Shown here: piece after piece, positions 8,153-63,540 of the stretch
Layout of the letters: every line of letters begins with the position of its first letter
Position numbering within the stretch: position 1 is the stretch's first letter
DNA from: Clostridia bacterium
Lineage (GTDB): Bacteria; Bacillota; Clostridia; TANB77; CAG-508
Assembly: GCA_900752335.1 (NCBI GenBank)
Contig: CAADUZ010000024.1
Coordinates: forward strand, 2,200 to 66,199
Direction of reading: 5' to 3'
Length of the DNA: 64,000 bases
The notes under the pieces: model-generated
The model's input: only the letters and a program-made list of their open reading frames with translations
The model's database searches: none
Told to the model about the DNA's origin: nothing
Program-made: the position numbers and the translations under genes

Positions 8153-9178
8153 TTACATAGTTCCAGCTTGTACAGCTGTAATCGCTACAACGCCAACTAT
8201 ATCGTCGCTATTGCAGCCTCTTGATAAATCATTTACAGGTCTTGCAATACCTTGGCAAAGTGGTCCATATGCTTCTGCTTTTGCTAGTCTTTGAACTAGT
8301 TTATATCCAATATTTCCCGCATCTAAATTTGGAAATATTAAAGTATTTGCTTCTCCTTTTAGTGGGCTTCCTGGTGCCTTACTTGCATTTATTTCTGGTA
8401 CTATTGCTGCATCTAATTGTAGCTCTCCGTCACAAATTAGATCTGGCATTTTTTCTTTTAATAATTTAGTAGCCTCTATTACTTTTTCTGTTAATTCTGA
8501 ATGTGCACTTCCATAAGTAGAATATGAAAGCATTGCTACTTTTGATTCTTTTCCTGTTAATTGTTTAAAGCTTTTGCTTGAAGATATAGCTATCTCTGAT
8601 AATTCGTCTGCTGTTGGGTTTTCTACTAAACCACTATCTCCAAATATGAATACACCATTTTCTCCATATTTGCAATCTGGAACTACCATTAAGAAAAATG
8701 CTGATACAAGTTTTGTTCCTGGCGCTGTTTTTAATATTTGAAGTGCAGGTCTTAATGTATTTGCTGTAGAATGGCAAGCACCTGATACTAAACCATCTGC
8801 ATGTCCTAATTTTACCATCATTGTACCAAAATACATGTTATCTTTTAGCATTTCTCTTGCTTTTTCTTCTGTCATACCCTTTGCTTTTCTTAACTCATAA
8901 AAAGCATTTACATATTCTTCATATCTCTCTGAAGTTTCTGGATTTATAACTGGTATTCCTGAAATATCTATATTATTTGCTTTTGCTCTCTTTTTTGCAT
9001 CTTCTTCATTTCCTATAAGAATTACGTTTGCGAAACCTTCTTGTTTAACCTTTGCTGCTGCTTCTAATACTCTTATATCTTCGCTTTCTGTTAATATTAT
9101 AGTTTTTATATCTTTTTTTGCTTTATTTTTTATATCGTCTATAAAAGCCATAAAAAATGTACCTCCCTTAAATTTCAA
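8153..9178 (-). CDS. pta: phosphate acetyltransferase
   Basis: Pta-like throughout; sits directly upstream of ackA. The true start is probably the internal Met (MAFIDDIKNKAK, about 9151). Confidence 0.9.
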   Translation of the reverse strand: MKFKGGTFFMAFIDDIKNKAKKDIKTIILTESEDIRVLEAAAKVKQEGFANVILIGNEEDAKKRAKANNIDISGIPVINPETSERYEEYVNAFYELRKAKGMTEEKAREMLKDNMYFGTMMVKLGHADGLVSGACHSTANTLRPALQILKTAPGTKLVSAFFLMVVPDCKYGENGVFIFGDSGLVENPTADELSEIAISSSKSFKQLTGKESKVAMLSYSTYGSAHSELTEKVIEATKLLKEKMPDLICDGELQLDAAIVPEINASKAPGSPLKGEANTLIFPNLDAGNIGYKLVQRLAKAEAYGPLCQGIARPVNDLSRGCNSDDIVGVVAITAVQAGTM

Positions 9179-10911: not shown

Positions 10912-11165
10912 CTCATAATATTATATGAAGTGTTTTTTGCTTTGTGTGCAACTTATTTAATTAATTAGTACTACTGTTCCTAATACCAACGTGTTTAGTA
11001 GATTATCCAACGTTTTTTCTTCTCCATCTATTACTAGTTTTCTTGAGCTTAAATATAATTTCATATTTTAAATATAGCTGCGCTTAAATAAAACTTAAAA
11101 AAATCTACTAAAATTGTTTATTCTACTAGATTTTTATTTATATATATTATATAATACCTACAAAT

Positions 11166-11251
11166 GCGAGTATGCTGGAACTGGCAGACAGGCACGTTTG
11201 AGGGGCGTGTGCTTTAGGAGCGTATGGGTTCAAGTCCCATTACTCGCACCA
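11166..11251 (+). tRNA. tRNA-Leu (anticodon GAG), class II with long variable arm
   Basis: Acceptor stem GCGAGTA/TACTCGC; T-arm ATGGG-TTCAAGT-CCCAT; anticodon stem CACGT/GCGTG with loop TTGAGGG (U33, GAG, G37); long variable arm; 3' CCA encoded. Confidence 0.8.
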
Positions 11252-16599: not shown

Positions 16600-17055
16600 A
16601 TGAAAAAGATAGTAGCAACAAACCCTACAGCCCGTCATAACTATACAATAGAAGATACTTATGAAGCCGGAATCGTTTTAACAGGAACTGAAATAAAGTC
16701 GATAAAACAAGGCAAAGTAAATTTAAAAGATAGTTATGCTAATATAAAAAATGGCGAAGTATTTATATATGGTATGCATGTAAGTCCATATGAATTTGGA
16801 AATATATATAACAAAGACCCTTTAAGAACTAGAAAGCTTTTATTAAATAGAAGAGAAATAAACAAACTAACAGGATTAATAAAACAAAAAGGATTAACTT
16901 TAGTCCCTATCTCACTTTACTTTAGTGGACATTTCGTTAAAGTAGAACTTGGTGTTGGTAAAGGAAAAAAATTATATGATAAAAGGCAAGATATTGCAAA
17001 AAAAGATGCCGAACGTAGAATGCAAAAAGCAATGAGTTTAAAAAATCAAAGTTAG
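16600..17055 (+). CDS. smpB: SsrA-binding protein
   Basis: 151 aa; NRKARHNY-like start ([12 protein letters not shown]...); full SmpB length. Confidence 0.9.
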
Positions 17056-17060
17056 ATTCT

Positions 17061-17120
17061 GGAACAAGGGGACACACAATTTGTTTCAAAAATGAAACAA
17101 ATTGTGTGTCCCCTTGTTCC
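17061..17120. terminator. long perfect hairpin (28-bp stem) between convergent smpB and fba; also a member of a repeat family
   Basis: ggaacaaggggacacacaatttgtttca-aaaa-tgaaacaaattgtgtgtccccttgttcc. A related copy lies at 52784-52915. Confidence 0.6.
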
Positions 17121-17136
17121 ACCTTGTTCCAATTTT

Positions 17137-18066
17137 CTATGCTTTATTGCTTGAACCGAAGACGTCTCTTATTTTATGTTCTACTGTTTCTTTTATTAAT
17201 TCTCTTGCTGGTGTTAAGTATGCTCTTGGATCAAATTTTGAAGGTTCTTCTGTAAATACTTTTCTTATTGCTGCTGTCATTGCTAATCTTAAGTCTGTAT
17301 CTACATTTATTTTTGATACACCAGATACACTTGCTTCATGTAGCATTTCATCTGGTACACCTTTCGCTCCTGGTATATCTCCCCCATATTTATTACACAT
17401 TTCTACTAATTCTGGTATAACTGTAGATGCACCATGTAAAACTATTGGTGTGTTTGGTATTCTTTCTTTTACTTTTGCTAATATATCAAATCTTAATTTT
17501 GCTTCTCCTTTAAATTTATATGCTCCATGGCTTGTTCCAATAGCTATTGCAAGTGAGTCGCATCCTGTTCTTTCCACAAATTCCTTTGCTTGGTCTGGGT
17601 CTGTATACATTGCATCAGAAGCTGCTACGTTTACGTCATCTTCTATTCCTGCGAGTTTCCCAAGTTCTGCTTCTACTACTACGCCTTTTGAGTGTGCGTA
17701 TTCTACAACTTTCTTTGTTAAAGCTACATTTTCTTCAAAGTCGTATTTTGAACCATCTATCATAACAGATGAAAAACCGTTATCTATACACATTTTGCAT
17801 GTTTCAAAGTCTGGACCATGGTCTAGGTGTAATGCTACTGGTATATCATATTCGTCAAGTGCTGCCTCTACCATTTTTCTTAAATATCCTATTCTTGCAT
17901 ATTTTATTGCACTAGATGATGCTTGTAAAATAACTGGCGAATTTTGGCTAGCTGCTGCATCTACTATTCCTTGTATTATCTCCATGTTGTTTACGTTAAA
18001 TGCACCTATTGCAAATTTTTCTTTCATTGATTTTTCAAACATATCTTTTGTAGTTACTAATGGCAT
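17137..18066 (-). CDS. fba: class II fructose-bisphosphate aldolase
   Basis: 309 aa; MPLVTTKDMF...FAIGAFNVNNMEI matches FbaA. Confidence 0.9.
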   Translation of the reverse strand: MPLVTTKDMFEKSMKEKFAIGAFNVNNMEIIQGIVDAAASQNSPVILQASSSAIKYARIGYLRKMVEAALDEYDIPVALHLDHGPDFETCKMCIDNGFSSVMIDGSKYDFEENVALTKKVVEYAHSKGVVVEAELGKLAGIEDDVNVAASDAMYTDPDQAKEFVERTGCDSLAIAIGTSHGAYKFKGEAKLRFDILAKVKERIPNTPIVLHGASTVIPELVEMCNKYGGDIPGAKGVPDEMLHEASVSGVSKINVDTDLRLAMTAAIRKVFTEEPSKFDPRAYLTPARELIKETVEHKIRDVFGSSNKA

Positions 18067-32370: not shown

Positions 32371-32440
32371 GGGACTGAATGAAAAAAGTTGGGGAGGGAA
32401 ACTATTCAAGTTTCCCTCCCCAACTTTTTTCATTCAGTCT
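32371..32440. terminator. long hairpin terminator downstream of the pilin-like FGE gene
   Basis: gactgaatgaaaaaagttggggagggaaac / gtttccctccccaacttttttcattcagtc, near-perfect 30-bp stem. Confidence 0.6.
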
Positions 32441-32516: not shown

Positions 32517-33746
32517 CTATTCCAAATAAAGTACTATGCGAAAGCCAAGATTTTCATAAGAATCGCCAGCCGCATCAAATTCAGGAAGACGAATAGCGCT
32601 GTAATTACTATCTGAATAACTTCCCCCTCTTGTCACACCACTTGCCATTATTTCTCCAAGCATATTATTACTAAAGAGTTCTTCTGTCCATTCTTTACAA
32701 TTTCCTAACATATCATAAATGTTTGAATATTTATCTGATTCTTTTCCAGTTACTTTATATTCTCCAGTTTGTTCCACTGACTGTGTATTTATATTGCCAT
32801 AATCACTATCTGTTGTTACAGCTAGTAAATACCCTTTCTCGTTTGTTTGACATACGAAATTTAGTGCTGTATCCCATGCATAACTGCTAGCTAATACGCT
32901 CGTAACATAATAATTATCGTACATTGCACTTGCTCGTATTCTTGCTGTATATAGTGTTACATGTGTAAATGGATACTTGCTTGCTTGTACCACTAGCGGT
33001 ATCTTCTCTGTATCTACTGGCGAAGTTATTTCTGTTTCACTTCCTGTTTCATATCTTCCTATATAAAATCCTTTATTCGTTATGCTACTTGTTTTGAAAT
33101 ATTCAAGCGGGTCTTGTACTAGTGAATTTCCTTCACCATAATAATATTCATTATATTCCTCGGCCAATGGCCCTGCTATTGCATCATCCCCATTTACTAG
33201 TGTTGAGCTATTTTCTGTAAATGTTCTTCTACTTAATTCATTTGTTAATTTTCCTGCAGAATTTATACTAGTAGATACATTATATTCTCCTACTGGTATC
33301 CACACAAATTGGTTTCCGGCATCGTCCTCTATTACTATTCCTTCTTCTACTTTTGTTCCACTATCTTCTGCTATATGAAATTCTCCTGGTATTGTTACTT
33401 CATTATCTAAATCGTCTGTTATTGTTGTTGTATCTTCAAATCTTTTTCCACTTTCTTTTGCTTCTTCCACTTCACTTTTTTCTACTGGCGGATTCTGGTC
33501 TTCCGCCATTATATTTGCATATTCGCTCATCAAACTATTCAACCCTTGTTGTTCTTCTAATGCTGCTTGCTCTGTTAATTCCTTGGCTTGCTGTGCTCTT
33601 TGAATGAGCCCTCCTTCTCCTAATACTACATTTAATGTTACTGTTGCAAGTATTATTAATATAACTATTGTTATTACTAATGCAATTAACGTAATACCTT
33701 TTTCTTGTGTTGCTTTAATTTTGTTCTTCTTCTTTACTTCTTTCAC
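32517..33746 (-). CDS. pilin-like N-terminal (prepilin-type) TM segment fused to an FGE-sulfatase (SUMF1-like) domain protein, paralog 1
   Basis: 409 aa; N-terminus KGITLIALVITIVILIILA (type IV pilin-like, Glu+5 replaced by Ala); C-terminus GNCKEWTEE...TRGGSYSDS...GFRIV (FGE-sulfatase hallmarks). Confidence 0.65.
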   Translation of the reverse strand: MKEVKKKNKIKATQEKGITLIALVITIVILIILATVTLNVVLGEGGLIQRAQQAKELTEQAALEEQQGLNSLMSEYANIMAEDQNPPVEKSEVEEAKESGKRFEDTTTITDDLDNEVTIPGEFHIAEDSGTKVEEGIVIEDDAGNQFVWIPVGEYNVSTSINSAGKLTNELSRRTFTENSSTLVNGDDAIAGPLAEEYNEYYYGEGNSLVQDPLEYFKTSSITNKGFYIGRYETGSETEITSPVDTEKIPLVVQASKYPFTHVTLYTARIRASAMYDNYYVTSVLASSYAWDTALNFVCQTNEKGYLLAVTTDSDYGNINTQSVEQTGEYKVTGKESDKYSNIYDMLGNCKEWTEELFSNNMLGEIMASGVTRGGSYSDSNYSAIRLPEFDAAGDSYENLGFRIVLYLE

Positions 33747-33812
33747 TTTTCTTTATCCTCCTTGTTTTTTTATTTATATATTTTTAAAATTAAAATCTAA
33801 ATTTATATATAT

Positions 33813-33850
33813 TTTTTGCACACAAAAAGGACAGACTATATGCCTATCTT
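33813..33850 (-). terminator. intrinsic terminator of the spoIIIA operon
   Basis: ggcggactatatgcc-aagata-ggcatatagtctgtcc followed by TTTTTGTGTGC on the minus strand. Confidence 0.5.
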
Positions 33851-33956
33851 GGCATATAGTCCGCCCTTTGTACTGATTTATTTGTCCTAATTTTGTATTA
33901 TTTATTTTACTTGTATTTTTTGCATAATTAATAAAGCCCAATTCTTTAAAATATAG

Positions 33957-33978
33957 CTCTCTCTCTCTCTCTCTCTCT
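33957..33978. repeat. (CT)11 dinucleotide microsatellite
   Basis: ctctctctctctctctctctct in the 420-bp intergenic region upstream of FGE paralog 1. Lies inside a 26-aa ATG ORF (34026 to 33946, minus strand) that has an RBS. Confidence 0.9.
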
Positions 33979-34166
33979 TACAGCTTCAAGCGTTTCGCTT
34001 CTTTCTATTTTTCTACTGTTCTTCATTTATTTTTCCTTTCTTTTTAATTATGCTCTTTTCTTTAGTGTATTTTTATTATATGCTATTTGTATTTTCTTTT
34101 CAATTACTTTTAGCAAATGTAATGTAATTTTAATATGTCTGTAACATTTTTGTAATATTTTACTTC

Positions 34167-42281: not shown

Positions 42282-43136
42282 TTAAACAGTTAAAATTTCT
42301 ATGTCTAAACTTGAAATAAATTCTTTTATTTCTTTTATGATTTCTTCAAACTTAATATCATTTGCATATTTATTCTTTTTAGCATACCCATTCCATAAAC
42401 TTACAATTCTATCATATGAAGATATACTATCTAAAATCTGTTCATAATCTTTTAAGTAGTCAAGCGATTCTCTTTTATCAAATGTATTTTTTATTGATAG
42501 TTTTAAATTCTTAATATCAATATTATCCTTAAATTTTTTTAAAAACATATGTACATCGTAGTAATCTTTCATTCTGCTATTGTATTGTCCTCTTCTTAAA
42601 ATAGTTTCAATTTTTTCTGATATTATTGTTTCAACATTATATGTATAAATTAATATCTTTTTATCTTCAAATAATGATGGATAACTATAATCCAACTCTT
42701 TTGGTACAACTTTATCTCCTGTAGAAATATCAATATCTAAATTAATTTTAAGATTTTCTAATTTTCCAATTAAATGATATTTATTCCCACCATATTCATC
42801 TTCTTCTCTTATATCAGTTATATCAACCAACTCAAATTTTACTCCGTCTTTTAAATCAATATTTAATATTTCGTTTAAAACTTTTACCATCTGCTCTTTG
42901 GAAATATCTAGTCCTTTGATTGTTGTATCCATATCTCTTGTAGTTCTATTATTGATTCCAAATAGTGCTGATAACAATAGACCACCTTTTAATATAAAAT
43001 TTTCTTGATATTTTGAAACTGAAATTCTTTCTAAAATTCTCTCAAACATAAATCTTTGTAACAATTCATAATGATTTAGTTGATATTTTCTCTCTAGTTC
43101 TTTTGATTTTTGTTTAAGTGCTTTATATCTTATCAC
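42282..43136 (-). CDS. AbiEii/AbiGii-family nucleotidyltransferase toxin (type IV TA / abortive infection)
   Basis: 284 aa; DUF1814-like NTase with FILKGGLLLSALFG…RTTRDMD. 4-bp overlap with the upstream antitoxin gene. Confidence 0.65.
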   Translation of the reverse strand: MIRYKALKQKSKELERKYQLNHYELLQRFMFERILERISVSKYQENFILKGGLLLSALFGINNRTTRDMDTTIKGLDISKEQMVKVLNEILNIDLKDGVKFELVDITDIREEDEYGGNKYHLIGKLENLKINLDIDISTGDKVVPKELDYSYPSLFEDKKILIYTYNVETIISEKIETILRRGQYNSRMKDYYDVHMFLKKFKDNIDIKNLKLSIKNTFDKRESLDYLKDYEQILDSISSYDRIVSLWNGYAKKNKYANDIKFEEIIKEIKEFISSLDIEILTV

Positions 43137-43726
43137 TTCATTAAAACCTCCATTATAGTAGTTAGTTTTTCATATACATTAAATATTCTAGCATATTCAT
43201 CTAATAGTTTTAAATTTTTATTTTTTAAATTAAAATAACTTTTCAAAATTTTATTGTATAACTCTATATCATACTCATCTTGTTTTTTTAGCATATCACA
43301 TATACATCTTTCTAAATTATATACAATTATAGGATTACCATATGGACTTGTTATAGTAATTTTACCTATATTTAACTTTTCTTTAGATACATAGTGAATT
43401 TTTACATTTTCTCTAATTTTTTTATGAGAATATGTAGTAACATCAAGTTCATATGGTGCTCTTTCACTAATTCCCAACAAGTGGAACGCAGTATTATATG
43501 AATAAATAATATTGTTGTAACGTTTTTGTAAAATATAGTATTCATCTTCAATTAATTTATTGTCAATGTATAAACCTCTTGATACTCTTCTAATTATTCC
43601 ATTTTTTATTAATTCTGGAATATATATTCTTTGAATTCCATTTTGTTCTATTTCTCTAGATGTTATATAACCATTATTTCCTTTTAAAAATTTTTCTATT
43701 TTTTTTATATTCATATTAACCCCCAT
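43133..43726 (-). CDS. AbiEi-family antitoxin / transcriptional regulator
   Basis: 197 aa; N-terminal wHTH (GYITSREIEQNGIQRIYIPELIKNGIIRRVSRGLY) typical of AbiEi_4; overlaps the toxin gene. Confidence 0.6.
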   Translation of the reverse strand: MGVNMNIKKIEKFLKGNNGYITSREIEQNGIQRIYIPELIKNGIIRRVSRGLYIDNKLIEDEYYILQKRYNNIIYSYNTAFHLLGISERAPYELDVTTYSHKKIRENVKIHYVSKEKLNIGKITITSPYGNPIIVYNLERCICDMLKKQDEYDIELYNKILKSYFNLKNKNLKLLDEYARIFNVYEKLTTIMEVLMK

Positions 43727-52758: not shown

Positions 52759-52783
52759 TTACTTTTTCACTTTCTTTCTTTTT

Positions 52784-52915
52784 GGAACAAGGGGACACAC
52801 ATTTTGTTCCAATTTTGAAACAAAGGGACAGACATTAATAAATTCTGATAATTTTAATTTACCATATCCGTCCCCAATTTTCTTTTTTGGAACAAAATGT
52901 GTGTCCCCTTGTTCC
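52784..52915. repeat. MITE-like element with 27-bp terminal inverted repeats, related to the 17061 hairpin
   Basis: ggaacaaggggacacacattttgttcc … ggaacaaaatgtgtgtccccttgttcc flanking a 78-bp AT-rich core. Confidence 0.65.
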
Positions 52916-52923
52916 AGTTTTTG

Positions 52924-53652
52924 CTAAATCCCAGCTTTTTCTGCTATCATAAATCCAGCATAAACAGTAGAGTATTCTGCCGTTATTTCTTTTAGTAATT
53001 CCTTTTCCTCTTCCATTAGTGCTTTTCCTAAATTAGACATTTTCTTGTCTAGCTTTTGTGTCATTTTTGCACAGTCTTTTAGTTCTTTTTGTATGTTTTT
53101 TGGTACTTGCTTATCATATTTATAGTTTATTTTATGTTCCAAGCTTGCCCAAAAGTCCATTGCCATTGTTCGTATCTGTATTTCTACTTTTACGTCTATT
53201 GTTCCTATCGATAGGCTAACTGGAACAGATACTATTAAATGGTAGCTTGAATATCCACTTTCTTTTGGAGATTGCACATAGTCTTTTTTCTTTATAATAG
53301 TGATGCCCGGCATATTTTCAATCATTTCTACTATTTTATATATGTCTGGTATAAATGAGCATATTATTCTCATTCCCGCTATATCGTTAATTGTTTTTAT
53401 TAAGTTTTCATAGTTTAGTTCCAAGCCTTTTTTCTTTAATTTCTTTACTATGCTTTCTTTACTTTTTATTCTGCTACTTGTATGTTCTATCGGATTATAC
53501 TTATGTAATACTTTAAATTCTTCACTTATTGTATTTATTTTTCCCTCTATTTGTTGTAGTGCTGCTGTATACATGAATGTGAGTCTTTTATATTCCATAT
53601 CCTCTTGCAGGCTATTTTCTTTTTTTACTACTTGATTTTCTATAGTAATCAA
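52924..53652 (-). CDS. small alarmone synthetase (RelQ/RelP-like GTP pyrophosphokinase)
   Basis: 242 aa; HKYNPIEHTSSRIKS…DIAGMRIICSFIPDIY matches the RelA_SpoT synthetase domain of YwaC/YjbM. Confidence 0.85.
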   Translation of the reverse strand: MITIENQVVKKENSLQEDMEYKRLTFMYTAALQQIEGKINTISEEFKVLHKYNPIEHTSSRIKSKESIVKKLKKKGLELNYENLIKTINDIAGMRIICSFIPDIYKIVEMIENMPGITIIKKKDYVQSPKESGYSSYHLIVSVPVSLSIGTIDVKVEIQIRTMAMDFWASLEHKINYKYDKQVPKNIQKELKDCAKMTQKLDKKMSNLGKALMEEEKELLKEITAEYSTVYAGFMIAEKAGI

Positions 53653-61823: not shown

Positions 61824-61950
61824 ACGTTTTCCTCCTTATTTTTCCGAGTAATGCTATTCTTTTGTTGTGTTTCAATTTGTATTTATTATGTCATTAAAAT
61901 TTATATCTTATATTATAATAGATTATATTTATTTTTCCAATAGAATTACT

Positions 61951-62024
61951 AATATTTTTTCAATTTTATTTTACACACAAAAAAACCGCTATAAGTTTTA
62001 TACTTATAACGGTTATTGGTTTTA
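61951..62024. repeat. 72-bp direct repeat (copy 1) containing an intrinsic terminator
   Basis: aatattttttcaattttattttacacacaaaaaaaccgctataagttttatacttataacggttattggtttt; about 93% identical to 63424-63496. Confidence 0.8.
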
Positions 62025-62042: not shown

Positions 62043-63260
62043 TCAGCTTTCAGGATTTACATAAAGCTGGAGGCGGAATGAAATGTTGGTAGAGCTATTG
62101 CTCGTAGCAACGTTGCCACGAAAAGCTGCATAGAGGCTATTGTAGTAACCACCACCTCTACTGACACAAGGACCGTGGCCGCTTGAGTACTCTGTTGTCC
62201 ATTCAAAACAATTACCTAATAAATCATGAATATTAGAATAATTATCTGCTTCATATTCTCCTGTTTGTGTTCTATTGTCTGTTCCTATATTTCCATAAGT
62301 AGCATCGGTTGTTGTTGCTAATAAATATCCTTCTGTATTAGTCTGACATATAAAGTTTAATGCTGTATCCCATGCATAACTACTTATTAGTTCACTTGTT
62401 ACATAACTATTTCCATTATACATTGCTTCCGCTTGTGTTTTTGCATTATCTCTTGTTATATCTACATATGGATTTACTCCTGCTTTACATACATTTCCTT
62501 CTCCTTGCTCATATCTGCCTATATAAAACCCTTTGTTATTAGTTGCGCTTGTTTTAAAAGCATCTATCTGGTCCTTTGCTACTGAATTTTCATTTCCTTC
62601 TCCATAATAATATTCATTATCTTCAATATTTTCTCCGGCTATTGCATCATCTCCATTTACTGGCGTTGAATCACTATCTGTAAATGTTCTTCTACTTAAT
62701 TCATTTGTTAATTTACCGGATGAATTTATTGTATCGGATACGTTATATTCTCCTACTGGTATCCACACAAATTGATTTCCGGCGTCGTCCTCTATTACTA
62801 TCCCTTCTTCTACTTTTGTTCCACTATCTTTATCCAAATGAAATCCACCTGGTATTTTTACAGAATTATCTAAATCGTCTGTTATTGTTGTTGTATCTTC
62901 AAATTTTGGTCCATCTTCACTTGGATTTGGTTTTGCTTCTTCTATTGGCGTAGTTTCTTCTGGTGGATTTGTTGTACCTGTTCCCGCAAGTATGCCGTTT
63001 ATAAATTTCTCTGCTCCTTTTAATTCGTCTTGCTCGTCTTTTTGTGCTTGCTCTGTTAATGTTTTTCCTTCTTGGGCTCTTTGTATTAATCCACCTTCTC
63101 CGAACACTAATGTTATTGTTACTGTTGCAAGTATTATTAGAATAATAATTGTTATAACTAATGCAATTAATGTAATACCTCTTTCTTTACTATACATTTT
63201 TGAAGTTCTTTGAAGACTTGTTTTGCCTACTTTTTTGTTTGGCTCATTTGCTTCTTTCAT
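62043..63260 (-). CDS. pilin-like N-terminal TM segment fused to an FGE-sulfatase domain protein, paralog 2
   Basis: 405 aa; RGITLIALVITIIILIILA; C-terminus GNCFEWTTE…SRGGGYY…SFRLQ. Long blocks about 90% nt-identical to paralog 1. Confidence 0.65.
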   Translation of the reverse strand: MKEANEPNKKVGKTSLQRTSKMYSKERGITLIALVITIIILIILATVTITLVFGEGGLIQRAQEGKTLTEQAQKDEQDELKGAEKFINGILAGTGTTNPPEETTPIEEAKPNPSEDGPKFEDTTTITDDLDNSVKIPGGFHLDKDSGTKVEEGIVIEDDAGNQFVWIPVGEYNVSDTINSSGKLTNELSRRTFTDSDSTPVNGDDAIAGENIEDNEYYYGEGNENSVAKDQIDAFKTSATNNKGFYIGRYEQGEGNVCKAGVNPYVDITRDNAKTQAEAMYNGNSYVTSELISSYAWDTALNFICQTNTEGYLLATTTDATYGNIGTDNRTQTGEYEADNYSNIHDLLGNCFEWTTEYSSGHGPCVSRGGGYYNSLYAAFRGNVATSNSSTNISFRLQLYVNPES

Positions 63261-63423
63261 TTTTTCTTTTCTCCTTTCTTATGTACCTTTTTCTTTTTAG
63301 TCTTATCCTTTTTGTTTCTTTTTATACATTTATTTAATCAATAGTCTTTTCGTACTTTGTCGTTTTATACTTCCAGTACGTTTTTATTTTATACTAATAG
63401 TTCTGTTTTTACAATACTTTTTT

Positions 63424-63496
63424 AAAATTTTTTCAATTTTATTTTAGGCACAAAAAAACCGCTATAAGCTTTATACTTATAACGGTTATTTGTTTT
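63424..63496. repeat. 72-bp direct repeat (copy 2) containing the rny terminator
   Basis: Near-identical to 61951-62024; hairpin ccgctataag…cttataacgg then a T-tract on the minus strand. Confidence 0.8.
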
Positions 63497-63540
63497 ATTC
63501 TCAAAATTTGCCATTTTTATCTCTGTCCTCAATGGTTATA

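Follow-up and report, generated by a model that had tools for sequence, protein, structure and literature searches.

An apparently frozen, lectin-like paralog with a prepilin-like leader in a family of retroelement-diversified proteins from gut Clostridia

Among bacterial systems, the variable proteins of diversity-generating retroelements (DGRs) come closest in nature to an antibody repertoire. Already known for DGRs are variable proteins with a fold of the formylglycine-generating enzyme (FGE) type, anchoring at the N-terminus, accessory genes of the MutS-like kind, and targets that are multiple or reached in trans; the accessory genes, the multiple targets, and action in trans are documented DGR features (PMC8632793), and most cellular DGR targets combine an N-terminal transmembrane (TM) segment or signal peptide with binding domains (PMC8144416). 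To date, gut examples have been linked chiefly with phage tail fibres and with the type V pili of Bacteroides. Here we describe a different arrangement in abundant, uncultured, small-genome Clostridia, consisting of a very large family of lectin-like, predicted surface proteins that share a near-invariant pilin-type leader lacking the usual glutamate. The subject is a gene termed paralog 1 (positions 32517..33746, minus strand) in a 64,000-nucleotide stretch of DNA (hereafter the window) from a Clostridia bacterium (assembly GCA_900752335.1, contig CAADUZ010000024.1, positions 2,200 to 66,199 of the forward strand), together with a second paralog in the same window. A first-pass annotation had read paralog 1 as a pilin-like N-terminus fused to an FGE-sulfatase domain; its main omission is that the family consists of DGR variable proteins. 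Paralog 1 is probably a non-enzymatic surface ligand-binding member of this large family, and it appears to be a frozen copy.

The open reading frame (ORF) is real. It spans 409 aa from a GTG start that is backed by homologues whose first residue, M or V, falls at this position, and it joins the pilin-like N-terminus to a C-terminus in which TRGGSY and GFRIV both lie within the last 40 residues. As judged by profile comparisons, both the pilin-like and the FGE-like resemblances exceed chance, and yet the domain matches are weaker than the first-pass wording implied. Pfam FGE-sulfatase (PF03781) scored 27.3 bits against a cutoff of 23.3 and covered residues 339-405 only, and the prepilin profile N_methyl (PF07963) fell below its cutoff. 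A family profile search matched the C-terminus to SUMF2, PorK, and FGE and, weakly, to TvpA (E = 0.34), and NCBIfam yielded noise-level matches only, to GldK and to a prepilin-peptidase-dependent protein. The suggested analogy with the structural FGE modules GldJ, GldK, and PorK held as a distant relationship of fold but not as family identity, with the PorK/GldK model of the type IX secretion system (T9SS; TIGR03525) reaching 14.9 bits against a cutoff of 350.

Structural modelling placed the C-terminal domain more firmly. The full-length model was mediocre (pLDDT 69.5), and Foldseek found nothing significant with it because the long N-terminal helices dominate. Residues 88-409, remodelled with AlphaFold2 from a more diverse alignment, gave a pLDDT of 95.5 and a pTM of 0.94 and adopted an FGE/C-type-lectin-type fold. 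The best neighbours of this model in the PDB were TaqVP (5vf4; probability 1.00, E = 6.6e-4) and Mtd (1yu1; E = 1.4e-3), followed by the FGE-like protein ToxD (7spq); the closest solved folds are thus two DGR variable proteins, and paralog 1 does not group with secreted FGE-like proteins of the ordinary kind. Furthermore, C299 and C350 are the only cysteines of paralog 1, and none occurs in the segment RGGSYSDSNYSAIRLPEF after RGGSY, where FGEs carry their catalytic, Cu-binding Cys pair. The lack of this pair argues against paralog 1 being an FGE enzyme, a reading we rejected for this reason, and the sequence points to a non-enzymatic FGE-like domain, as the first-pass annotation had suggested.

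Paralog 1 belongs to a family with more than 5,700 matches in a 90%-clustered database and 2,131 clusters at E <= 1e-10 in a 50%-clustered representative library. Among species-representative genomes, all 51 loci came from metagenome-assembled genomes (MAGs) of uncultured Clostridia/Bacillota in the guts of humans, chickens, and rabbits; several copies are often present in one MAG, and at least five occur on a single contig of 1,475,409 bp. The N-terminal module is nearly invariant among homologues. The final ~50 residues, in which Y, S, N, T, and G abound, are hypervariable, and in paralog 1 the equivalent stretch lies in the C-type-lectin/FGE-type fold typical of DGR variable proteins. Giant proteins were also seen (P0244, 6477 aa; P0263, 5309 aa; P0268, 3424 aa), with 14-20 tandem copies of the family FGE-like domain.

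The retroelement itself is present in relatives. Comparison of C-terminal DNA segments with everything outside the family genes singled out one region, locus L033, in which a family gene is followed by genes for a 154-aa MutS-domain-I protein, an Avd-like protein, and a 335-aa reverse transcriptase (RT), and then by a 136-nt template repeat (TR). All but one of the 26 substitutions between this TR and the variable region (VR) of the family gene fall at template adenines. RT homologues are abundant, and the 1.475-Mb contig with family paralogs also carries an RT homologue, P0175. In six samples, conspecific loci (L054-L059) carry the order rny, family gene (408-410 aa), MutS_I, bAvd, RVT_1, template repeat, and 87-aa ORF, beyond which lie a 206-aa ORF, an acetyltransferase gene, and genes for patatin and EAL proteins. 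The conspecific template translates as EYSSNNNNPCVNRGGNYNNSNNYAANRNNNNTSNSNTNNSFRLQL, with AAY at 19 of 47 codons.

Changes at template A sites were compared with changes at non-A sites, and adenine bias was assessed by Fisher's test. The VRs of the cis targets in L054 and L055 differed from their own TRs at 26/55 and 17/55 A sites, respectively, and each at 1/83 non-A sites (p = 8e-12 and p = 3.6e-7). In the same conspecific genome, remote paralogs are template-derived as well, and others are intermediate or decayed. The remote paralog P0093, ~230 kb from the cassette, showed changes at 20/55 A and 7/83 non-A sites (p = 7e-5), and a split paralog (P0412 plus 335 aa) at 22/53 and 7/82 (p = 7.5e-6). 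The corresponding values were 19/40 and 11/70 for P0083 (p = 4e-4), 22/40 and 18/67 for P0086 (p = 3.5e-3, with many non-A changes), and 18/55 and 24/83 for P0117 (p = 0.39). Among the six samples, whose RT protein is identical, 76 columns vary over 3.9 kb, and 47 of these lie in the ~150-nt VR of the cis target; this focusing of between-sample variation on the VR is the footprint of DGR activity in natural populations.

Two irregularities were observed among these conspecific targets. In L059, the cis target (8690-8900, compared with 11069-11206) carries 6 additional nt, in frame, relative to the template. The split paralog lies between spoVT and gap (L061, 10001-11245) as 72-aa and 335-aa ORFs and retains its template-derived VR. 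Split family genes suggest frequent pseudogenisation or phase-variable interruption, and many of the short database proteins with the family leader are likely fragments of such genes.

Paralog 1 differs from these diversified relatives in several features that mark a DGR target. Only 72 nt of it align with the conspecific template, with changes at 9/27 A and 15/40 non-A sites (p = 0.73) and hence no adenine bias, and comparison with that template gave no cognate repeat with adenine-confined mismatches. The 3' homing-type sequence TTCCGCCTCCAGCT, which resembles an initiation of mutagenic homing element, is absent; the template and true VRs have TCTTTCCGCCTCCAGCT at this place, and paralog 1 has GGCTTTCGCATAGTACT. 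Paralog 1 has no RT in cis and no strain hypervariability: over the C-terminal 40 residues, four alleles from other samples (P0001, P0121, P0122, and P0123) match it exactly, and a fifth (P0002) departs from it at two residues. In a positional allele, P0004, identity is 80-100% across the flanks and over the 5' two-thirds of the gene and drops to 43-56% over the last ~250 nt. Paralog 1 was therefore rejected as a DGR target in its own right. Since it lacks a template match and the homing sequence and is invariant between strains, it would encode one fixed specificity, and these sequence comparisons identify it as a mosaic, fixed member of an otherwise diversified family.

The second paralog, whose existence the first-pass annotation had implied, is indeed present in the window and retains the marks of a DGR target. 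Relative to conspecific template repeats, its VR is changed at 22/51 A sites and 3-4/81 non-A sites (p = 1e-7 to 2e-8), and it keeps the 3' TTCCGCCTCCAGCT common to the template. Two 3-nt gaps relative to the template were also noted in this VR. The window matches a conspecific genome at 99% identity in the rny flank and 96% in the HMA-ATPase flank, and its syntenic site runs from rny through paralog 2 to the 206-aa ORF with no DGR cassette between them. In place of the ~2.85-kb cassette (MutS-like, bAvd, RT, template repeat, and 87-aa ORF), the window has the rny-terminator segment a second time. A direct repeat of 75-93 nt containing the rny terminator hairpin thereby brackets paralog 2, and short A/T-rich microhomologies occur at both junctions, which look like the result of strain-level cassette loss or replacement. 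No DGR RT or template repeat was found in the 64-kb window, where the two paralogs and the terminator repeat are the only long repeats. The absence of the cassette from the syntenic site, together with the template-derived VR, would make paralog 2 an orphan target, unless a DGR lies outside these 64 kb.

The N-terminus of paralog 1 consists of a basic leader ending in Gly and followed by ITLIALVITIVILIILA, with Ala at +5; the string quoted in the first-pass annotation, KGITLIALVITIVILIILA, corresponds to residues 16-34 and places Gly17 at -1 and Ala22 at +5. Leader conservation was scored over 87 diverse members that are 30-86% identical in the rest of the protein. Residues G-1, L+6, and T+9 were present in 100% of them, T+2 and L+3 in 98%, and I+1 in 96%. 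Position +5 was Ala in 94%, otherwise Ser or Val, and never Glu, so the Ala that had been remarked on in a single protein is a property of the family, which supports the proposal of a surface module carried on a pilin-like leader without Glu+5. Ahead of the Gly lies a short stretch of basic character (median length 13 aa, net charge +4), and the 25-residue hydrophobic stretch is followed by a conserved G-[ED]-[NG]-G break. The family profile aligned in register with type IV pilin N-termini (Geopilin, E = 0.003; MshA, E = 0.009; PilA too), and the JGI annotation of several members is pseudopilin PulG. N_methyl scores were 12.3 bits for paralog 1, 15.0 bits for paralog 2, and at best 19.5 bits in relatives, below the cutoff of 21.2. 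With its basic residues, Gly at -1, and subsequent hydrophobic segment of ~20 residues, but neither Glu+5 nor a gathering-level N_methyl score, the leader is best described, from its sequence, as prepilin-like.

The same leader module heads FGE-like proteins, proteins with stalks of fibronectin type III (FN3) repeats (870-1106 aa), and DUF6273 proteins. In longer family members, FN3 repeats are inserted between the leader and the FGE-like domain, an arrangement that fits a surface stalk. A tandem array of at least six genes was seen in the rabbit-gut MAG CANRHX01 (L050, 86-7963), next to mreB, radA, and disA; its genes share a ~75-residue leader and stalk (…KGITLIALVITIIVLLILAGVTIAMLSGDNSAPQKATEAAQ…), and their C-terminal domains are unrelated, one being FGE-like and split, one DUF6273, and others without a Pfam match.

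A prepilin peptidase, for which the first-pass annotation had suggested a search, is encoded in a conspecific genome. This Peptidase_A24 protein (L067, 8056-8796; 246 aa; PF01478, 65.9 bits) carries both Asp motifs, IVDYKLQIIPN and GFGDVKL, and no recognisable N-terminal methyltransferase (DiS_P_DiS) domain. Its gene lies at ~1.0 Mb, in the region L067 7521-8796, between a HAD phosphatase gene and pepP-efp and two genes downstream of a template-derived family paralog; no A24 peptidase was seen in the 64-kb window itself. Regex-only scans of ~1 Mb of fetched flanks around family genes (~8% of the 1.475-Mb genome) gave no PilB/PilC-type gene and no real PilB/PilT/GspE-type Walker A motif (GxTGSGK[ST]), further A24 GxGD box, or canonical Glu+5 prepilin. 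Family genes are scattered singly among chromosomal housekeeping genes (spoIIIA, pfkA, rny, nusA, valS, and gap). A search with the N-terminal 82 residues alone returned short proteins only, and stand-alone small pilin candidates were rejected as split pseudogenes, the best of them, P0412 (72 aa), being the front half of the split family gene described above. The earlier pilin reading stands for the likeness of the leader; a role as a pilin or pilus tip would be conjecture.

Two further readings concern the fate of the leader, and both sit within the main picture rather than competing with it. In the first, paralog 1 would be a plain type II signal-anchored protein that remains uncleaved, with its pilin likeness due to common descent or composition and the A24 peptidase serving other substrates. 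We consider this possible, although unlikely. The subthreshold N_methyl scores, the missing Glu+5, and the absence of pilus machinery from the scanned flanks are all in keeping with it, FN3-stalk variants resemble ordinary anchored adhesins, and an N-terminal TM anchor is the usual layout of cellular DGR targets (Roux et al., PMC8144416). However, G-1, T+2, L+3, A+5, L+6, and T+9 are invariant even though the remainder of the protein is 30-60% identical and the C-terminal domains differ. This residue-level invariance argues for recognition by a specific partner and not for mere hydrophobicity, and the species does encode an A24 peptidase.

In the second, more doubtful reading, paralog 1 would be a genuine type IV minor or tip pilin, cleaved by A24, with its helix in a type IV pilus, Com-like, or pseudopilus filament and the lectin domain at the tip. 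Minor pilins without Glu5 do exist, as in the case of GspK. The leader matches the prepilin pattern everywhere but at +5, its conservation goes far beyond what a plain anchor needs, and the in-register match to pilin N-termini, the near-cutoff N_methyl score in relatives, the PulG annotations, and the Peptidase_A24 gene close to a family paralog all point in the same direction. A GspG-type pilin domain has, moreover, received passing mention among rare VR-bearing proteins in a 2024 survey (PMC11661182). Against a filament role, Glu+5 is never present and N_methyl stays under its cutoff, the conserved G-E-G-G break interrupts the helix immediately behind the hydrophobic segment, where the alpha-1 helix of pilins runs on unbroken, the family genes stand alone and not in pilus operons, the scanned flanks hold no assembly ATPase motif, other A24 motif, or Glu+5 pilin, and the small pilin candidates proved to be split genes. 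A tip pilin of this kind would give Gram-positive bacteria an equivalent of the type V pilus tip adhesins that DGRs diversify in Bacteroides.

A wider and similarly tentative idea is that the Ala+5 leader (…[KR]-G↓I-T-L-[IV]-A-L-V-[IV]-T-I…, then G-[ED]-[NG]-G, with the arrow at the putative cleavage site) might be a lineage-specific sorting signal. Processed by the methyltransferase-less A24 peptidase, it could load a surface-protein repertoire, including DGR-diversified lectin adhesins, onto a type-IV-pilus-like or pseudopilus structure, with one retroelement serving several remote paralogs beside frozen copies. If true, this would be a Gram-positive parallel, of type IV, to the DGR-diversified type V pilus tips of Bacteroides.

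Two other explanations are highly improbable. Activity of paralog 1 as a membrane-tethered FGE (SUMF1-type) or a related oxidase or sulfoxide synthase would suit the above-cutoff Pfam match and the weak profile matches to FGE, EgtB, and PvdO, but that Pfam match spans only 70 residues, no Cys follows RGGSY, the nearest structural neighbours are DGR variable proteins rather than FGEs, and no sulfatase gene lies in the neighbourhood. A prophage or phage receptor-binding protein like Mtd, diversified by a phage-borne DGR, would likewise suit the Mtd-like fold and the many viral clades among gut DGRs (PMC8144416), but we rejected it because no family member occurs in 2.9 million IMG/VR contigs, where RT relatives reach only 56% and 36%; in addition, every genomic context consists of chromosomal housekeeping genes, and an N-terminal membrane leader is foreign to tail fibres.

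We therefore return to paralog 1 as a probable non-enzymatic, ligand-binding surface protein. In the proposed model, the basic leader and the near-invariant 25-residue hydrophobic helix would insert the protein in the membrane N-in/C-out, and the species' A24 prepilin peptidase would probably remove the leader between G17 and I18. A helical stalk and Pro-rich linker would project the FGE-subtype C-type-lectin domain outward, and the C-terminal ~50 residues of this domain would form the binding surface. In sister genes, this surface would be rewritten by the DGR (MutS-like protein, bAvd, RT, and template repeat) through adenine-specific mutagenic retrohoming. Paralog 1 would stand outside that circuit, presenting a single specificity, while the loss of the cassette from its syntenic site in the window strain would have left paralog 2 with an orphaned VR.

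Several observations weigh against this model. The leader lacks Glu+5 and scores under the N_methyl cutoff, and its cleavage by A24 is presumed. The window covers 64 kb, and a DGR may be present elsewhere in its genome. The conspecific cis VR and paralog 2 carry in-frame indels of 3-6 nt relative to the template, which simple retrohoming does not yield. The template signature of the positional allele P0004 is only partly decayed (changes at 28/54 A and 20/83 non-A sites), and paralog 1, instead of being a retired target, may never have been subject to a DGR.

The coordinates of both paralogs and their signals are collected in Table 1. In the full-length model of paralog 1, a helix spans residues 8-42, and the stalk is the portion that differs between its alleles. 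The 24-bp stem downstream of the gene could also act bidirectionally.

Table 1. Features of the two paralogs and their surroundings, given as positions in the window
Feature	Position	Strand	Remarks
Intrinsic terminator of paralog 1	32380-32432	minus	24-bp perfect stem, dG -40.8 kcal/mol, z = -10.4
Paralog 1 coding sequence	32517..33746	minus	Prepilin-like leader, helical stalk, and FGE/C-type-lectin-fold domain
FGE-subtype C-type-lectin-fold domain, ~residues 101-409	32520..33446	minus	Predicted extracellular; from model, Foldseek, and Pfam
Segment equivalent to family variable region, ~residues 356-407	32526..32681	minus	Fixed, not template-derived
Stalk, residues 43-100	33447..33620	minus	Amphipathic helix 47-81 and Pro/Glu-rich linker; secondary structure from model
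Hydrophobic helix, residues 18-42 (ITLIALVITIVILIILATVTLNVVL)	33621..33695	minus	Ala at +5; followed by conserved G-E-G-G break
Basic leader, residues 1-17 (MKEVKKKNKIKATQEKG)	33696..33746	minus	Ends in invariant Gly (-1); putative cleavage between G17 and I18
Ribosome-binding site AAGGAGG of paralog 1	33757-33763	minus	10 nt upstream of GTG; read from sequence
Terminator-like hairpin upstream of paralog 1	33830..33848	minus	Insulates paralog 1 from spoIIIA operon
Second copy of rny-terminator segment (repeat D5)	61932..62024	minus	Exactly at cassette site of conspecifics; junction comparison
Paralog 2 coding sequence	62043..63260	minus	405 aa, 59% identity to paralog 1; positional orthologue of DGR cis target downstream of rny (synteny with L054-L059)
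Paralog 2 variable region	62062..62193	minus	Template-derived, orphaned: no template repeat or RT in window
First copy of 75-nt terminator repeat	63423..63497	minus	Downstream of rny, upstream of paralog 2

The window is low in GC (~30%) and carries spoIIIAA-AH, pfkA, argS, glmM, metG, and rny. Paralog 1 occupies the slot between spoIIIAH and pfkA, and a protein identical to it is present on human-gut metagenome contigs. This slot is a hot spot: other strains (L070, 1479-5266; L071, 1-5266) carry two to three family genes and a ToxN-type toxin gene there, and in the window strain paralog 1 is alone (32517-34166). A ToxN gene likewise follows the paralog P0117 in L069. Upstream of paralog 1, on the minus strand, a small ORF (MKNSRKIERSETLEAVRERERERELYF; 33955-34030) contains an (AG)n microsatellite of ~11 units; conservation of this region is 86-98% in L070, where it separates ToxN from the positional allele, and it could be a slippage-prone tract or non-coding.

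Further features of the window lie apart from the family genes. An AbiEi/AbiEii toxin-antitoxin (abortive infection) pair occupies 42282-43726 on the minus strand, flanked by yebC and an acetyltransferase-like gene. At 17047-17137 and again at 52780-52927 stand long, nearly perfect hairpins (TGGAACAAGGGGACACACA…TGTGTGTCCCCTTGTTCCA) that are probably shared bidirectional terminators, and one directly follows smpB. A tmRNA after smpB was considered and rejected, since only the terminator hairpin is present; neither ARAGORN nor Rfam detected a tmRNA in the window, apart from spurious miRNA-model matches. The Rfam scan of the window likewise gave no match to elements such as the c-di-GMP riboswitch found upstream of pilin genes.

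A literature search for a Glu-less, Ala+5 prepilin-type leader (string ITLIALVIT) or for a DGR associated with a pseudopilin found no description, and DGR combined with prepilin returned nothing relevant. In particular, we could not find described an Ala+5 leader common to a very large Clostridial family, a within-species gradient from active target to frozen paralog, or strain-level loss of the cassette. In one species, copies are actively rewritten, targeted remotely, decayed or split, or frozen, as in paralog 1, and strains differ in the presence of the retroelement. The family thereby provides a natural series in which to follow binding proteins from a diversified to a fixed state and to see what the loss of a DGR does to the surface repertoire, and its leader is a candidate new sorting signal. 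Paralog 1 is the least dynamic member of this family, and the window does not include the retroelement. For annotation purposes, such proteins should be named neither FGE or sulfatase-modifying enzymes nor PulG.

Comparison with described systems brings out both the familiar and the distinct parts of this family. Membrane-bound cellular DGR targets are laid out in the same way, with a TM segment or signal peptide at the N-terminus, domains for adhesion or binding, and a VR of the C-type-lectin kind at the C-terminus; the survey that catalogued them describes neither a prepilin-type leader nor a large paralog family with mostly remote or decayed targets (Roux et al. 2021, PMC8144416). The family shares with type IV pilins and pseudopilins the basic leader ending in Gly, the [I/F]-T-L-[I/V]-x motif, the hydrophobic helix of ~20 residues, the in-register profile match, and the presence of an A24 peptidase in the species. 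It differs from them in that Ala replaces Glu+5 family-wide, the G-E-G-G break intervenes, the globular part is of FGE/C-type-lectin type and not a pilin beta-sheet, and assembly genes are missing from the flanks scanned. The structural lipoproteins PorK, GldK, and GldJ of the T9SS share a non-enzymatic FGE fold and weak sequence matches, but the GldK score is far below its cutoff, the family has no lipobox, Clostridia have no T9SS, and the partners are different. In archaea, class III signal-peptide surface proteins such as the sugar-binding "bindosome" of Sulfolobus employ a pilin-type leader as an all-purpose means of exporting and anchoring extracellular binding proteins of many kinds. The presence of one leader on FGE-like, FN3-stalk, and DUF6273 proteins recalls this by analogy only, across different domains of life.

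The type V pilus tip adhesins BfrT, BthT, and BunT of Bacteroides (bioRxiv 10.1101/2024.11.15.621889) resemble the family in their gut host, a DGR-diversified C-terminal lectin-like domain, and a pilin-type N-terminal targeting module. They are type V pilins with a Sec signal, lipobox, and Arg-protease site and are encoded in operons on integrative and conjugative elements, whereas the leader described here is type-IV-like with Ala+5 and the genes are scattered chromosomal singletons. Finally, TvpA of Treponema denticola (PDB 2Y3C), TaqVP (5VF4), and Mtd (1YU0-1YU2) have the same FGE-subtype/C-type-lectin fold, C-terminal variable ligand-binding residues, and AAY-rich templates, and they too are non-enzymatic, at a sequence identity of ~10%. 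TvpA is a lipoprotein and Mtd forms the tip of a phage tail fibre, in contrast to the prepilin-like leader and helical stalk of the present family, and, unlike all three, paralog 1 has no cognate template and is not variable.

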